A stretch of 64,000 nt of DNA, from assembly GCA_963666515.2 (NCBI GenBank), contig OY762897.2:3744001-3808000 (forward strand), given 5' to 3'. The position numbers and the translations under genes are program-made. Under the pieces are notes generated by a model. The model was given only the letters and a program-made list of their open reading frames with translations, was not told the DNA's origin and ran no database searches. This DNA is from Candidatus Binatia bacterium (GTDB lineage: Bacteria > Desulfobacterota > Binatia > UBA9968 > JAJDTQ01). Every line of letters begins with the position of its first letter. Positions within the stretch are counted from its first letter, which is position 1. This document shows, piece after piece, positions 50,906-56,563 of the stretch.

Positions 50906-51068
50906 CGTCATTCCGGCGAAAGCCGGAATCCAGGACGGGCGGGGCGGGGAATCACTCTCGTCTGCCCCTCCCCACCCCTGGATTCCGGCTTTCGCCGGAA
51001 TGACGATTTCGGAGGTCATCGCCTATCTCGGACGACGTTTTGGCACCGCCTGGAAAGCGGGAATCCAG
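50906..51068. repeat. Inverted REP pair plus a degenerate third copy
   Basis: Copies at 50906-50933 and 50978-51005; partial gaaagcgggaatccag at 51053-51068. Confidence 0.9.
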
Positions 51069-51860
51069 GGGAGGAGGGGGCGCAAGCAGCACCCGCGTCC
51101 CCGTTCCCGCGCCGAGGCCCGCCTGGGCGCTGCCGTTGCAGCGGGATATCTCCAGCAGTCCCCAGCTATTGACCAAGGCTAGGTAGTTGCCGGCGCCGGC
51201 CGAGGCGTAGTTGTCCGACAGGCCCCGGATGACGCTGTCGCCGACCCGCACCGAAACGCTCTCCGTGTCGAGCCGGCCCAGGTGCTCGCGGCGGATGTTG
51301 GTGGTCAGGTTGCCGAAGCCGTCGACATAGATCACCTGGCCGGCGATGCCGCCCCCGTCTCGTATCTCCGGGTCGGGAACATGCAGGCTCTCGAAGCTTT
51401 CCACGGTCTCGCCCAGCTTCTCCAGCCGAACACCCGCCGACAGGTGGGCGGCCACGGGTGCGAAGACGTCTCGGCCGTGGAACGTCGTGCTGGTGGGCTG
51501 GAGGTGATACTCGGGTTTGGAAAGGTGGATGATGCGGCGCAGGCGTTGCCGCCCGGCCGCGAGGCTCAGGAGCCCGTTGTCCGGGCCCACGTAGCAGGCC
51601 CGGTCGGTTTCGAGCAGGATGGGCCGCCGGTCGCCGCCGACGCCGGGATCCACCACCGCCACGTGGACCACGCCCTCCGGAAAGAAGTCCACGGCGGACG
51701 CCAGCGCCAGCGCGCCTCCGGTGACGTCCTGAGGGGCGACGCCGTGGGTCAGGTCGATGAGGGTGGCGCCAGGGTCGATGGCGGCCACCACCCCCTTCAT
51801 GATGCCGACGAAGGGGTCGCGGTAGCCGAAGTCCGTGGTCAGGGTGATGATTCTTGACAC
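50952..51860 (-). CDS. SAM hydroxide adenosyltransferase (DUF62 family) with REP-derived C-terminal tail
   Basis: ITLTTDFG, VVDPGVGGDRR, GPDNG, STTFHGRDVFAP, YVDGFGNLTTN. Confidence 0.9.
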   Translation of the reverse strand: MSRIITLTTDFGYRDPFVGIMKGVVAAIDPGATLIDLTHGVAPQDVTGGALALASAVDFFPEGVVHVAVVDPGVGGDRRPILLETDRACYVGPDNGLLSLAAGRQRLRRIIHLSKPEYHLQPTSTTFHGRDVFAPVAAHLSAGVRLEKLGETVESFESLHVPDPEIRDGGGIAGQVIYVDGFGNLTTNIRREHLGRLDTESVSVRVGDSVIRGLSDNYASAGAGNYLALVNSWGLLEISRCNGSAQAGLGAGTGTRVLLAPPPPLDSRFPGGAKTSSEIGDDLRNRHSGESRNPGVGRGRRE

Positions 51861-51977: not shown

Positions 51978-52664
51978 ATGATCGAGCTCTACACCAGCGC
52001 CACCCCCAACGGCCAGAAGATCCACATCATGCTGGAGGAGACCGGCCTCCCTTACCGTCTTCACTGGGTCGATCTCAGGAAGGGCGAGCAGTTCGATCCG
52101 GAGTTCCTCAAGATCAGCCCCAACAACAAGATCCCCGTCATCTTCGACCGGGACGGCCCCGGAGGGGAGCCTATCTCGGTGTTCGAGTCCGGCGCCATCC
52201 TGGTCTACCTAGCCGAAAAGACCGGGAAGTTCCTGCCCACCGAAACCCGTGCCCGCACCCGTGTGCTGGAGTGGCTGATGTTCCAGGTGGGCGGCGTCGG
52301 TCCCATGCTCGGCCAGGCGCACCACTTCCGCGCCTACGCGCGCGAGAAGATCCCCTACGCCATCGAGCGCTACACCAGCGAGGGGGCGCGCATCTACCGG
52401 GTGCTGGACAAGCGGCTGTCCGAGAGCGAGTACCTGGCGGGAGACTACTCCATCGCCGACATGGCGGTGTTCCCGTGGATCCGTCTGCACGAGCGGCAGG
52501 GCCAGGACATGGCCGACCACCCCCATCTGAGCCGGTGGTTCAACACCATTGCCGCGCGGCCCGCAGTGGCCAGGGACATGGAGAAGACCCGGGACGTGGT
52601 GGGTGCCATCACCGACGAGATGTGGGACAATCTCTGGGGCAGGAAGCAGTTCGAGCGGCGCTGA
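51978..52664 (+). CDS. Glutathione S-transferase, YfcG-like
   Basis: ATPNGQK, ISPNNKIP, FESGAIL, GPMLGQAHHF, YSIADMA. Confidence 0.92.
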   Translation: MIELYTSATPNGQKIHIMLEETGLPYRLHWVDLRKGEQFDPEFLKISPNNKIPVIFDRDGPGGEPISVFESGAILVYLAEKTGKFLPTETRARTRVLEWLMFQVGGVGPMLGQAHHFRAYAREKIPYAIERYTSEGARIYRVLDKRLSESEYLAGDYSIADMAVFPWIRLHERQGQDMADHPHLSRWFNTIAARPAVARDMEKTRDVVGAITDEMWDNLWGRKQFERR

Positions 52665-52678
52665 CCGGGGGCCGCGGC

Positions 52679-53116
52679 CTACGAGCTGCTGTCCATGGGG
52701 TAGCCTTTCTCGGTCCAGCCGGGAAGCCCCTCGTACAACACCCTCATGTTGCGGTGGCCCTGCTTGTGGAGAATCTCGTAAGCCAACCTGGACAGGTGGC
52801 GAGGGCACTGTCAATAGAGGACGACGAGACCTTCTTTCGGCACGAGGTCCTTGCCCCGGAAAAAGGCGCCCAAGGGTATGGAGAGGGCGCCCTTGATGTG
52901 CCCCGCGTCATAGCTGCGGCGCTGCCGGACGTCCACCAGGGTGATCGGCTTGCGGTCGAGGATGTGCTGGACCAGCTCTTCCACCCGGATATACCGGACC
53001 GCGATCTTGTCCGAGGTCTCTACTTTGGCGTACTCGGGGTATATCCCCGGGTCGCCCCAGGCAGGCGCCGCCGCCATCAACAGCAGCGCCGTCAGTCCAA
53101 CCGCAAGGCGTCGCAT
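52679..53116 (-). CDS. Exported rhodanese-domain protein, probable selenoprotein (UGA at 52811-52813)
   Basis: Signal peptide; LVDVR, YDAGHIKGALSIP, VVLY-TGA-QCP, then in frame RHLSRLAYEILHKQGHRNMRVLYEGLPGWTEKGYP to TAG at 52679. Confidence 0.85.
52775..52803 (-). promoter_or_regulatory. Putative bacterial SECIS element
   Basis: mRNA UGA-CAGUGCC-CUC-GCCACCU-GUCC-AGGUUGGC-UUAC-GAG; G-initiated loop 17 nt after the UGA, bulged U in the stem. Confidence 0.65.
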
Positions 53117-54012
53117 CAGCCGCCCTCGCTTTCCGGGGTCTTGACGCCCGCGAACCTAGCGCGGTCCGCCAGCATCGCCGGCGTCAGCACGCCGGTGTGG
53201 CGCCGGCCGTTGATGATCCACGTGGGATAGGAACGGACGCCGGCCGCCAGACACTTGGACGCCACCGGTCCGCTGCGTCCCGCGGGACTGCATTCGACGT
53301 AGGGAATGCGGTGGGCGGACGTCCCGAACAGTTCCTTCTGGCTCTCGCAGGCCGGACACCAGAACGCCCCGTACATCTTGACGCCGGTCTCTTCCAGGTG
53401 GGTGGCCAGCCCCTTCATCCAGGGGTCCTCCTTGCCCGAGGCCCCCACGGAGACGCCCGAATAGAAGACCAGGTGCAGCGCCACCACCGCGACCCCGGCC
53501 GCCAGGAAGCTCGATCCCAGCCAGGGCTGCCACGCAAGCCGGCGGCTCACCTGCGGGATCTGGAACAGGGTGACGACGAAGATGGCCGCAAGAAGCCCGA
53601 GGGACGTCAGGCAGTACGGACAGGCCGCCTCCAGCCGGAACACCGAAATGGCCGTGAGATACACGCTGTAGGCGACGCCGAACAGCGAGACCGCGGCGGT
53701 CAGTTTCCAGCGCTGGCTACGGCGTTTGCCGAAGGCCGCGGCTGCAAGCACCGCGTAGATGAAGAAACCCCAGAGCGACGTGGGCAGGCCCAGCAGCACC
53801 GACCAGCGGCTGTGCAGCACGATGTCGCAGTCGGCTCCCGCCTCGCAAAAGGCCGCCTTCTCCCCCAACCACGCGGTGCCGGTCAGATACCCCGCCAGCG
53901 CCAGCCCCACCACCGCCAGAGCCAGAACCGGCCAGTTCGGACTCGCGGACCCGGCCGCCGCCGGCTGCTGCCGGGGTCCTCGCCCGCCTTTCTTCCTCGA
54001 TGCCTTGGCCAT
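53116..54012 (-). CDS. VKOR-family protein fused to a thioredoxin-like domain
   Basis: Loop cysteines FCEAGADCDIVLHSRWS, ACPYC, then MYGAFWCPAC, YVEC, SYPTW. Confidence 0.92.
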   Translation of the reverse strand: MAKASRKKGGRGPRQQPAAAGSASPNWPVLALAVVGLALAGYLTGTAWLGEKAAFCEAGADCDIVLHSRWSVLLGLPTSLWGFFIYAVLAAAAFGKRRSQRWKLTAAVSLFGVAYSVYLTAISVFRLEAACPYCLTSLGLLAAIFVVTLFQIPQVSRRLAWQPWLGSSFLAAGVAVVALHLVFYSGVSVGASGKEDPWMKGLATHLEETGVKMYGAFWCPACESQKELFGTSAHRIPYVECSPAGRSGPVASKCLAAGVRSYPTWIINGRRHTGVLTPAMLADRARFAGVKTPESEGG

Positions 54013-54110
54013 GATCGCTCCTCCGGGACCTTCGCCCGGTGCCTGACACTACGTCGAAATTTAACAGACCCGCCGGTTCCAAGACAAGAAACCGGCCCTT
54101 TCGAACCGGC

Positions 54111-54749
54111 CTACCCCGTTCCCGTCAGCAAGCTTCGGGCGTTCCGGCGCAGCCGTTCCAACGCACGCGGGTTGCGGCTTTCGTAGTAGCCCCGGATGAT
54201 GCCGTCGCGGTCCACCAGCACGAACCGGGTGCTGTGGAAGACTACGGGATCGTGCGTGTGGCCGTCCACCGGGGCGGCGCTCAGGCGGAACCCGTCCTGC
54301 ACGATGCGGCGGATCTCCCCCAACTCACCGGTGAGGAACAGCCAGCGCTCGGGGTCCGCGCCGTACCGTTCGGCGTATCGCGACAACAACGCGGGCGTGT
54401 CCGTGAGCGGATCGACGGAGATGGAGACGGACCGCAGGTCGCCGTAGCCCTTCAGGTCCGTCCGCAGCGCCGCCATGGCGCGGCTCTGGAGCGGGCAGGT
54501 GTCCCGGCACTGGGTGTAGATGAAGTCCGCGATCCAGACCCGGCCGCGCAGGTCGCCGGCGGACACGGGCCTGCCGCTTCGCTCCACCAGCGAGAAGTCC
54601 GGCGCCGGACCGTACCGCGCGAGCTGCTCCAGGACGGGCTGGCGCGGAGCCGCAGGGGGGGTACGGAGTTGTTGGATGACAAGGCTGACGAGGACGATGG
54701 ACAAGACCGTCCCGACGGTCACCTGGAGCATGAAACGCCGCTGTGTCAT
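54111..54749 (-). CDS. SCO1/SenC family copper chaperone
   Basis: N-terminal TM, FIYTQCRDTCP, SISVDP, HSTRFVLVD. Confidence 0.93.
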   Translation of the reverse strand: MTQRRFMLQVTVGTVLSIVLVSLVIQQLRTPPAAPRQPVLEQLARYGPAPDFSLVERSGRPVSAGDLRGRVWIADFIYTQCRDTCPLQSRAMAALRTDLKGYGDLRSVSISVDPLTDTPALLSRYAERYGADPERWLFLTGELGEIRRIVQDGFRLSAAPVDGHTHDPVVFHSTRFVLVDRDGIIRGYYESRNPRALERLRRNARSLLTGTG

Positions 54750-54867
54750 GCTCCGGCCTCGCCCGGCCTATCCCGGGGGAATCTTCTGCAGCAGTCGGTC
54801 ATTTTCGTAAAGCTCGTACCGCGTATAAATTCCCATTAAAGCATGATCGCGGGGCAAGTGCAGGACA

Positions 54868-55683
54868 CTAGCGGTTCCGCCGCAGCCACCGGCGGCCACC
54901 AACCAGGAAGAAGACCAGCGTGAAGGTGAGGACGATCATGGCGCCGGAGGAGATGTCGATGAAGTAGCTGAGGTACATGCCGGCCGCCGCGCACACGGCG
55001 CCGATGATCGGGGTGATGACCAGCAGGGTCTGGAACCGTTGTGTCAGGTAGCGGCCTATGACCGGAGGGATGACCACGGCGGCGGACACGAGGGTGACGC
55101 CGAGGATGCGGGTGGACGCCACGATGGTGACCGCCAGCACCAGGATGAAGATCAGCTCGGTACGGCCGGTGGAGATGCCGTACACCGGCGCCACCTCCGG
55201 GTCGAAGGTGGAGAACAGGAGCTGGCGGCGGATGACGATCATGACGAGTACGACGGCGGCGGCGGTGGCCGCGATGACCCGGAGATCCACCGGCGTGATG
55301 CCCAGCAGGTTGCCGAAGAGCGCGGCCTCGAAGTCCAGCGTGAACTTCCGGTAGGTGGAGACCACCGCCACGCCCAGGGCGAAGCTCGCGGTCGTCACCA
55401 CGCCGATGGCGGCGTCGGCGCCCACCAGCCGGCGGTGGCTGATGAGGTGGATCAGCACCGCGCTCACCAGCGCCCACACGCCGGCGCCGATGAAGAAGTG
55501 GACGCCGACGATGGTGCTCAGCACCGCCCCGCCGAAGAGGGCGTGGGCCAGCCCGTGGCCGATATAGCTCATGCGCCGGAGCACCACGTAGACGCCGACG
55601 TAGCCGCACACCGCGCCGACGATGACCGAGGCGATCATGCCGTTGCGGAAGAACTCGTAGGCGAAGGGTTCAAGCGGACCCAT
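54868..55683 (-). CDS. Metal (Zn/Mn) ABC transporter permease
   Basis: GVYVVLRRMSYIGHGLAHA, LFGNLL, TFDPE. Confidence 0.92.
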   Translation of the reverse strand: MGPLEPFAYEFFRNGMIASVIVGAVCGYVGVYVVLRRMSYIGHGLAHALFGGAVLSTIVGVHFFIGAGVWALVSAVLIHLISHRRLVGADAAIGVVTTASFALGVAVVSTYRKFTLDFEAALFGNLLGITPVDLRVIAATAAAVVLVMIVIRRQLLFSTFDPEVAPVYGISTGRTELIFILVLAVTIVASTRILGVTLVSAAVVIPPVIGRYLTQRFQTLLVITPIIGAVCAAAGMYLSYFIDISSGAMIVLTFTLVFFLVGGRRWLRRNR

Positions 55684-55690
55684 GGAGGCG

Positions 55691-56563
55691 TCATCCGCCG
55701 TTGGGCGAGTGCGGCCGTTCGCCCACCATGATCATGTCGCCGTGCTGGAAGACCACCATCTCCCCCTTGTAGGTCTCTCCCAGCACTTCGGTGGTGAACA
55801 CCTGCTGGGGGTCGCCTTCGGCGATCACGCGCCGGTTCAGGCACACCACCCACGGCAGGTGCGCGGCCACCCAGTTGAGGTCGTGGCTGGTGATGAGGAT
55901 GGCGACGCCCGAGTGGTTGATCTCGTGAAGGAAATGGACCACCTCGTCGCGGGAGCGGATGTCGAGCCCGGAGGTGGGCTCGTCGAGCAGGATCAGCTCC
56001 GGCTCTCCCAGCAGCGCCCGGGCGATGAACGCGGCCTGCTGCTGTCCTCCGGACAGCTCCCGGATCTGGCGGTCCCGCAGCTCATGCAGGTTGAGCCGCT
56101 CCATGATCTCGTGGGCGCGGTCGCGGTCCTCCGGAGCGGTGCGCCGGAACCACCGGTGGCGCCGGGACAGGCCCAGCAGCACCACCTCCTCCACGGTGAT
56201 GGGAAAGCTCAGGTCGATCTGCTCAAGCTGCGGCACGTAGCCCACGGACCCGAGAGACCCGCCGCCAGCCGGCGCACCGTGGACGGTCACCCGCCCTTCC
56301 CTGGGCCGGATGTGCCCCAGGATGGTGCGCAGCAGCGTGGTCTTCCCCCCGCCGTTGGGTCCCACCACCGCCAAGAACTGCGCCGGCCAGAGCTTCAGGT
56401 TGACCCCGGCGATGCCCAGGGTCTGCCGGTAGCCGCTGGACACGTCCGTCAGCTCCACGATGGGCCGCCCCTGCTCGCTCCACTCCCGCCCGCCCGCATG
56501 CGGGTGCCCGTGCAGCCTGCCGTGGACGTGGTGGACCCGGTCGGTGTGCTTCTCGGAGGTCAC
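55691..56563 (-). CDS. Metal (Zn/Mn) ABC transporter ATP-binding protein
   Basis: GPNGGGKT, GYVPQ, LSGGQ, LLDEPT, SHDL; His-rich N-terminus. Confidence 0.92.
   Translation of the reverse strand: MTSEKHTDRVHHVHGRLHGHPHAGGREWSEQGRPIVELTDVSSGYRQTLGIAGVNLKLWPAQFLAVVGPNGGGKTTLLRTILGHIRPREGRVTVHGAPAGGGSLGSVGYVPQLEQIDLSFPITVEEVVLLGLSRRHRWFRRTAPEDRDRAHEIMERLNLHELRDRQIRELSGGQQQAAFIARALLGEPELILLDEPTSGLDIRSRDEVVHFLHEINHSGVAILITSHDLNWVAAHLPWVVCLNRRVIAEGDPQQVFTTEVLGETYKGEMVVFQHGDMIMVGERPHSPNGG

Follow-up and report, generated by a model that had tools for sequence, protein, structure and literature searches.

Introduction

The closest described proteins are the rhodanese-like selenoproteins, of which the table of a 2026 review, the part of that source used here, distinguishes five forms, UxxS, UxxG, CxU (NCBIfam NF041203), a further UxxG and UxxxxU (TsoB), none of them of known function (PMC13188914). 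The same table gives the motif U-x-C, with selenocysteine (Sec, U) two residues ahead of Cys, to just two proteins, a thioredoxin-like one and a Cu/Zn efflux transporter, and such a protein might also stand there under another motif label. The portion of the review that deals with metal transporters mentions U-x-C and other Sec motifs in them and considers Sec a possible metal ligand (PMC13188914). The present work deals with a rhodanese gene with an in-frame TGA found in a 64,000-nucleotide stretch of DNA from Candidatus Binatia bacterium (contig OY762897.2, the whole stretch being called the window below). The gene lies directly behind one for a VKOR fused to a thioredoxin-like domain (VKOR-Trx), which itself follows a gene for a SCO1/SenC copper chaperone (SCO). 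What is described is a U-x-C rhodanese in a conserved copper/thiol neighbourhood and not a demonstrated three-part system.

NF041203 (rhodanese_LYCAU) is the best NCBIfam match of the window rhodanese, which scores 47.6 bits there (40.5 in the genome search) where the cut-off is 115, and is about 28% identical in one pairwise match. Like the members of that family, the window protein is a small rhodanese selenoprotein whose N-terminus forms a hydrophobic leader, and in both the conserved L-Y of the active-site strand is immediately followed by a Sec/Cys pair in i/i+2 spacing. The members of NF041203 read LY-C-A-U, with Cys at the catalytic position, whereas the window form reads LY-U-A/Q-C-P-H in mirror order, and because the order of the pair is swapped it is Sec that stands at the catalytic position in the window form. 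Membership of the window protein in NF041203 was rejected, the score being under the cut-off and the motif LYUQC instead of LYCAU. LYCAU proteins scored above the cut-off in 48 of 301 genomes of a phylum sample, with no match in the 9 other Binatia genomes of that sample, and neither a VKOR nor an SCO gene was found within about 1.5 kb of any of six LYCAU loci (L188–L193). DUF547 genes flank two of these six. The LYCAU and U-x-C forms may replace each other.

TsoB (NF045694, "form 5", UxxxxU), to the extent that its description goes, combines a rhodanese domain that contains Sec with a membrane protein for thiol-disulfide relay and is a precedent for the pairing of such functions. It is a fusion to a reducing DsbD-type module with two Sec residues, whereas the window has a separate gene beside an oxidising VKOR. 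The window rhodanese was not accepted as a TsoB, since its match is limited to the rhodanese part, at 31.4 bits where 805 are required, and it has 145 amino acids and no membrane domain. PspE of E. coli is, like the window protein, a secreted single-domain rhodanese, and differs from it in having one Cys, no Sec and no Cys at i+2. An assignment to PspE/GlpE was also discarded (23.4, 23 and 20.8 bits against cut-offs of 102, 102 and 126.3, the PspE models giving 23 and 20.8). By the title of one paper, overexpression of PspE reportedly restores disulfide-bond formation without DsbA.

The VKOR-Trx of Synechococcus (PDB 3kp9, 4nv2) shares the loop Cys residues, the membrane CxxC and the Trx CxxC with the window protein, and in the window a Sec-rhodanese gene overlaps the VKOR-Trx stop codon. 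The solved Synechococcus protein is not known to have a rhodanese or an SCO protein as partner. On the SCO side, the part of the literature consulted describes TlpA of Bradyrhizobium as a dedicated redox partner of the CxxxC cysteines of the SCO protein ScoI, in TlpA-ScoI-CoxB copper loading (PMC6669012). As described there, this SCO-directed role is of the kind proposed below for the window rhodanese; TlpA is a thioredoxin-fold reductase with the motif CVPC, whereas the window candidate has a rhodanese fold and U-x-C and, judged from the genes alone, stands beside an oxidising, quinone-linked VKOR-Trx. A full-text search for VKOR together with rhodanese returned incidental co-mentions only and no such pair, and a search on VKOR, Sco1, copper and disulfide found nothing relevant among the papers listed. 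The first-pass annotation of the window had stated that it knew of no described system joining SCO, VKOR-Trx and rhodanese, and the literature searches and the review table, as far as they reach, turned up none either.

Results and Discussion

The Rhodanese Gene and Its In-Frame TGA

Under the standard code the rhodanese open reading frame (ORF; 52811–53116) ends at a TGA. If this TGA is read as U, another 43 codons follow before a TAG at 52679–52681, and the protein has 145 amino acids, with U102 in the sequence VVLYUQCPRH. The Pfam Rhodanese domain (PF00581; 9e-15, 55.4 bits against a cut-off of 22.2) covers residues 46–136 and spans U102, and the leader MRRLAVGLTALLLMAAAPAWG resembles a signal peptide by eye. 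In profile alignments to rhodaneses of the PDB, including 3tp9 and 6mxv, U102 falls on the first Cys of the active-site loop (e.g., CRTGGR), the catalytic Cys of these enzymes. The predicted structure was of moderate quality (pLDDT 70.6), and its top Foldseek matches were rhodanese domains (E 1e-6, TM 0.62).

A search of the window's own genome and 40 relatives gave 22 places with one in-frame TGA at E ≤ 1.2e-26, in the own genome, in 13 of 24 same-genus genomes and in 8 of 16 same-order genomes. In these 22 orthologues (37–84% identity) L100, Y101, U102, C104, P105 and H107 are invariant, and more invariant residues are found past the TGA. The motif among orthologues is LYUAC, LYUQC or LYUEC, the window having LYUQC; most of them carry U-x-C-P-H-H, position 106 being R in the window's genus and H elsewhere. 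A scan with one genome per species, using the pattern RNM[KR]VL[YDF]EG on genome contigs, yielded 54 related loci, mostly from records titled Candidatus Binatia or "Deltaproteobacteria" metagenome-assembled genomes (MAGs). The position of the TGA is shared by 52 of the 54, the exceptions being L083, with Cys, and L059, with neither U nor C (YGNRPRH). Full-length homologues with Cys and C-x-C-P (P0090, P0138, P0132 and P0179, with loops such as YCACPHH, YCACPHE, YCACPNH and YCSCPHH) were recovered by a profile search of 1.84 billion representatives.

The genome encodes SelA (4.1e-155), SelB (370.9 bits, above the cut-off), SelD (381.4 bits) and a tRNA-Sec with the anticodon TCA. The genes selD, selB and selA stand side by side outside the window (G000:C1:4043412-4047477), and since the selD match contains one in-frame TGA of its own, SelD is probably itself a selenoprotein.

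The UGA is followed by a hairpin resembling a selenocysteine insertion sequence (SECIS). In 99 distinct sequences, made up of the Binatia orthologues and a second Sec clade described below, 81% of the cells were paired in a helix that spans +19 to +35 (counted from the UGA's U), against 24–54% with slid partners. Changes on both sides were seen in four of its seven pairs, one pair being A-U 55 times and C-G 40 times, and the observed covariation score was reached by 0 of 500 shuffles, a control that kinship may inflate. The 22 orthologues alone showed strong nucleotide conservation and no covariation, RNAalifold returning three invariant pairs only. Another register, at +14 to +32, had 84% of its cells paired but zero changes on both sides and no excess over shuffles, and was replaced. 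The window's own sequence is better fitted by a stem of 7 bp that carries a bulged U and is capped by a GUCC loop, in a register shifted by five bases against the shared helix, and because of this difference the hairpin is given as a region in Table 1.

An in-frame TGA kept in place in 52 of 54 loci, followed by 43 codons with invariant residues, is not a chance event, and the window rhodanese is, on this comparative evidence, a real selenoprotein. If the TGA were a true stop, the product would be a 101-residue truncated rhodanese, deprived of the active-site residue and of the final third of its fold, and the frame behind it would be a decaying remnant. Such a remnant would not be expected to keep an open frame and invariant residues in 22 orthologues of 37–84% identity, a Pfam match that spans the TGA, homologues with Cys at the same place and a covarying hairpin, in a genome with the full Sec machinery. 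We regard the truncation as highly improbable, even with the public gene calls on its side, all 40 matches of which end at or near the Sec codon, at about 101 amino acids (87–115), together with a whole-region fold z-score of only −0.41 and no match in the window to Rfam at its gathering thresholds.

Overlap with VKOR-Trx and Conservation of the Linkage

The plus-strand letters at 53114–53118 are CATCA, i.e., TGATG on the minus strand, in which the VKOR stop (53118–53116) and the rhodanese ATG (53116–53114) have one base in common. The first-pass annotation had read the overlap in the same way, and it had also placed an SCO gene 98 bp upstream on the same strand behind a metal ABC permease, with which the coordinates and the Pfam matches agree. 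The gap between the SCO stop and the VKOR start is 98 bp, and that between the end of the ABC-3 permease gene and the SCO start 118 bp.

VKOR-Trx matches PDB 4nv2 (E 3.3e-46) and 3kp9 (E 3.8e-46) over residues 31–282, which include both domains, and the Pfam VKOR model with 87.9 bits. Its loop residues C56 and C62, the membrane CxxC (C131/C134) and the Trx CxxC (C219/C222) are invariant in 45 Binatia sequences. VKOR-Trx is the only VKOR in the window's genome, a DsbB search of that genome gave no match, and one CcdA/DsbD-type membrane protein is encoded elsewhere in it. As the sole VKOR of a genome in which DsbB was not found, VKOR-Trx is probably the general periplasmic disulfide oxidase, a quinone-linked equivalent of DsbB plus DsbA. 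The SCO protein (Pfam, 93.8 bits) has C81, C85, P86 (CxxxCP) and H172 invariant in 42 sequences; in the portion of the literature consulted the SCO motif is defined as CxxxCP with a distal His (PMC6669012).

Among the 54 loci of the genome scan, VKOR-Trx stands directly upstream of the rhodanese in 47 of the 53 that can be assessed (the 54th begins inside the rhodanese), and SCO precedes VKOR in 42 of these 47, the flank of the other five being cut by a contig end or too short. The linkage of rhodanese and VKOR holds down to 37–40% rhodanese identity in three families of one order and reaches beyond close relatives, as the proposal of the first-pass annotation required. In the window's genus the usual order is ABC ATPase, ABC-3 permease, Cox11-like, DUF4382, SCO, VKOR-Trx, rhodanese and a convergent GST gene; in another family it is methyltransferase, Cox11-like, SCO, DUF4382, SCO, VKOR-Trx, rhodanese and QueC. 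The downstream neighbour thus varies between a GST gene, found in the window's own genus only, QueC and a SIS-domain gene. As the family architectures differ around it, the triad survives a change of both flanks. The QueC or GST gene downstream is also conserved within families. The species collections of the 54-locus scan and of the search of 40 relatives overlap and are not independent, and since relatives share ancestry the linkage tallies overstate independent support. On the gene layout, the rhodanese is translationally coupled to the cell's only VKOR-Trx gene in one Binatia order.

Short contigs from RNA libraries of a relative about 92% identical to the window cross the junction at 53116 (52949–53148 and 52973–53152, in two assemblies of one study), reaching 32 and 36 letters into VKOR-Trx; further contigs fall inside that gene. 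They cover VKOR-Trx and the 5′ part of the rhodanese, and have no bearing on the expression of SCO or of the 3′ part of the rhodanese. They give a weak hint that rhodanese and VKOR-Trx are on one transcript, weak because such libraries can hold DNA and contigs prove no single transcript. A promoter scan returned 0 sites.

Other Features of the Locus

The features of the locus are collected in Table 1. The best NCBIfam matches of the ABC ATPase, which is retained upstream in same-genus loci, are metal-type ATPases, all under their cut-offs, and the AztB, ZnuB and SloB-like matches of the ABC-3 permease are likewise under theirs. Between the ABC-3 permease and SCO genes, DUF4382 was present in 13 and a Cox11-like gene in 11 of 14 same-genus loci (L032–L045); at the corresponding place the window has the 118-bp gap only (54750–54867), and no copy of either was found elsewhere in its genome with the queries used. 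Just past the convergent GST gene, at 50952–51860, lies a gene of the SAM hydroxide adenosyltransferase family (SAM_HAT_N 1.1e-52, SAM_HAT_C 7.3e-18).

Table 1. Genes and elements of the rhodanese locus, in the order of the minus strand (positions of the window).
Feature	Position	Strand	Evidence
ABC transporter ATPase, first gene of the cluster	55691..56563	-	Pfam ABC_tran 7.2e-30
ABC-3 family metal transporter permease	54868..55683	-	Pfam ABC-3 3e-60
SCO1/SenC copper chaperone, N-terminal membrane anchor (anchor by eye)	54111..54749	-	Pfam SCO1-SenC 1.1e-26
Terminator-like hairpin at the SCO stop, within the 98-bp gap ahead of VKOR-Trx	54089..54112	-	Consensus scan
VKOR fused to a thioredoxin-like domain (Synechococcus type)	53116..54012	-	Pfam VKOR 8.3e-25; PDB 4nv2/3kp9 matches
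Single-domain rhodanese selenoprotein, predicted to be secreted, 145 amino acids, motif LY-U-Q-C-P-R-H	52679..53116	-	TGA=U read-through, Pfam Rhodanese
Sec codon UGA (U102), matching the catalytic Cys of rhodaneses in position	52811..52813	-	Profile alignments, Cys homologues
SECIS-like hairpin region, +14 to +35 from the U of UGA	52779..52800	-	Fold and shared helix
Convergent GST gene, marking the 3′ end of the cluster	51978..52664	+	Pfam GST_N, GST_C

A Second Sec Clade and the Cys Forms

A metagenome scan seeded with two Cys forms gave 321 relatives, of which 80 were kept; 74 of the kept loci have TGA at the motif and six have Cys. A second Sec clade, to which the pattern of the genome-contig scan is blind, makes up 66 of the 80 contigs (within L112–L187, e.g., L136:4911-5330) and is characterised by a leader peptide and the motif FY-U-T/A-C-P-H-A/T. 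It is placed between two PmbA/TldD-like genes, at least one such neighbour being present in 9 of 9 loci examined and one on both sides in 7 of 9. Its genes often lie downstream of MoeA and upstream of transketolase genes. Seven of the 80 relatives are Binatia-like, with VKOR adjacent in five, and in one of them (L111) the order is rhodanese and then VKOR.

Of the six Cys forms of the metagenome set, three adjoin a Fur-family gene, as L083 of the genome scan does. The Cys form VVYCACPHHLASLAY overlaps the start of the Fur-family regulator in 4 of 4 loci (L083:5968-6947, L108, L109 and L110), one of the MAGs being titled Rokubacteria. Two other Cys forms (L116 and L128), probably of one, different lineage, adjoin SCO, L116 also DUF4198. 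The stretch L116:363-4593 also holds two small ORFs sharing HSVHHL...EP.KA..C, which may be further metal-related genes, like DUF4198. Since SCO recurs beside a Cys form and SCO-rhodanese pairs without VKOR occur (see below), SCO would be at least as good a candidate partner of the rhodanese as VKOR-Trx.

Proposed Role of the Rhodanese and Its Alternatives

The gene neighbourhood suggests a shared redox job of rhodanese, VKOR-Trx and SCO and makes a dedicated redox link of the rhodanese to VKOR-Trx or to SCO plausible. We tentatively put forward, as a possibility held with less than even confidence, that the copper/thiol module has in the rhodanese a redox helper, accessory and dispensable, which would be oxidised by VKOR-Trx. 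Sec replaces the catalytic Cys, with a Cys two residues on, and is inserted at the UGA with the help of the hairpin about 20 nt downstream. The VKOR-Trx/rhodanese pair follows a putative copper-handling set, namely the ABC-3 transporter and SCO, to which relatives add Cox11-like and DUF4382 genes. After export of the rhodanese, the periplasmic Trx-like domain would oxidise Sec102/Cys104 to a selenenylsulfide, and the electrons would travel by way of the VKOR CxxC to quinone, if the direction is as we infer. The oxidised rhodanese would in turn exchange quickly with selected periplasmic client thiols, among which an SCO-type CxxxC would be the best candidate. A selenenylsulfide would be the best fit because the Sec-Cys pair is at i and i+2, the protein is predicted to be secreted and the gene overlaps that of the putative disulfide oxidase. 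C-x-C disulfides are strongly oxidising, and Mia40 uses CPC.

A number of observations weigh against such a role, above all the separability of the parts. The rhodanese is absent from 11 of the 24 same-genus and 8 of the 16 same-order genomes (19 of 40), and VKOR-Trx is present in 36 of the 40 relatives, with or without it. SCO stands beside VKOR in 14 of 17 loci fetched from rhodanese-less genomes (10 same-genus and 7 same-order), the pair being kept in 9 of the 10 same-genus loci, so that SCO-VKOR evidently does without the rhodanese. Short rhodanese remnants occur just after VKOR in L086 and L097 (see also G005). With SelA present in 38 of the 40 genomes, the loss of the rhodanese is not a loss of the Sec trait. 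Conversely, VKOR-Trx was found in neither of the two genomes of one genus (95% and 81% complete), in which SCO-rhodanese is kept, and the rhodanese therefore has no need of VKOR-Trx there; a Trx-domain remnant of about 48 residues (YPTWIIN...) lies between SCO and the Sec-rhodanese of this genus (L046:1291-1437, also L016). Around three Sec loci (L051, L053 and L084) and around L083, which has Cys, the genes are unrelated ones and include neither VKOR nor SCO, and the same absence of both was seen in the 66 contigs of the second Sec clade. In L059 a rhodanese with neither Sec nor Cys (VVFYGNRPRH) stands directly behind VKOR-Trx. The same locus (L059:2013-6441) has a gene for a 761-residue Thioredox_DsbH (DUF255) protein between SCO and VKOR-Trx.

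Distribution and layout add to these objections. In class and phylum samples of 250 and 300 genomes, every orthologue found belonged to the window's order (in 7 of 15 and 10 of 19 genomes of two families in the class sample, and in 2 of 5 of a third in the search of 40 relatives), and none turned up in 213 genomes from 17 further families of the class or in the 300 of the phylum sample; since the orthologues are confined to one order, the conserved gene order may be partly inherited. The terminator-like hairpin at the SCO stop, one site against 2.1 in shuffles, is not significant and is only well placed. Moreover, as VKOR-Trx is the sole such oxidase found, it could oxidise whatever Sec/Cys pair is secreted, without specificity. 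Of the new system proposed for these three genes in the first-pass annotation, the frequent adjacency (47 of 53 loci) has thus held, while a joint presence and loss of the parts has not, the rhodanese being absent from 19 of 40 genomes and VKOR-Trx present in 36.

Several of these observations fit as well an independent periplasmic sulfur or selenium transferase, which would carry a persulfide or perselenide on Sec102 as PspE-, GlpE- and Sud-type enzymes do on Cys and act on small S/Se compounds; its place behind VKOR-Trx would come from inherited order or promoter sharing, VKOR-Trx being a general oxidase and SCO an unrelated neighbour. The rhodanese fold with Sec at the catalytic position, the separate losses of rhodanese and VKOR-Trx, the other neighbours of the second Sec clade and of several loci, and the confinement to one order agree with it, and the QueC or GST gene kept downstream within families indicates strong inherited synteny. 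Such a transferase gives no account, however, of the invariant Cys at +2 with P-H after it, foreign to plain sulfurtransferase loops in the PDB alignments, of a VKOR adjacency that outlasts a change of both flanks and one inversion of the order, of the SCO adjacency that recurs in a Cys-form lineage or of the stop/start overlap, and we consider it, though the main rival, somewhat unlikely. More unlikely still would be a metal-site protein in which Sec102, Cys104 and His106/His107 bind Cu(I) or reduce Cu(II), a copper chaperone or reductase feeding SCO, with VKOR-Trx only setting the thiol state. Only one His is invariant, position 106 being R in the window's genus and H elsewhere, and the second clade has P-H-A; we know of no rhodanese-fold copper protein. 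The clustering with a metal transporter, SCO, Cox11-like and DUF4382 genes speaks for this proposal all the same, as do the SCO-rhodanese pairs kept without VKOR and the Cys forms that adjoin SCO and DUF4198 or a Fur-family regulator, and the consulted part of the 2026 review has U-x-C in metal transporters with Sec as a possible metal ligand (PMC13188914).

The helper oxidised by VKOR-Trx could also be conceived in a more specific and bolder way, as a quinone-linked periplasmic selenenylsulfide relay in which the rhodanese would be a fast thiol oxidant or isomerase for the SCO CxxxC or for cuproenzyme targets, although we think it unlikely in this full form. If true, the relay would be a selenium counterpart of DsbB/DsbA and of Erv1/Mia40 (CPC), dedicated to copper-site assembly, and the U-x-C and C-x-U rhodaneses would make up one new class of secreted i/i+2 redox catalysts.

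Conclusions

Against the five forms in the review table, the part of that source used here, the U-x-C-P-H protein would be a sixth form of rhodanese-like selenoprotein, a mirror of LYCAU, with two clades and the TGA in 52 genome loci and 74 metagenome contigs. The U-x-C form moreover gains a concrete setting, its gene overlapping that of the cell's only disulfide-forming VKOR-Trx and standing beside SCO. Should the proposed redox link prove false, the locus would still be useful for annotation, public gene calls ending at or near the Sec codon. Should it prove true, it would tell how an oxidising periplasm without DsbB handles the cysteines of its copper chaperones and would provide the first assigned role for the rhodanese selenoproteins.

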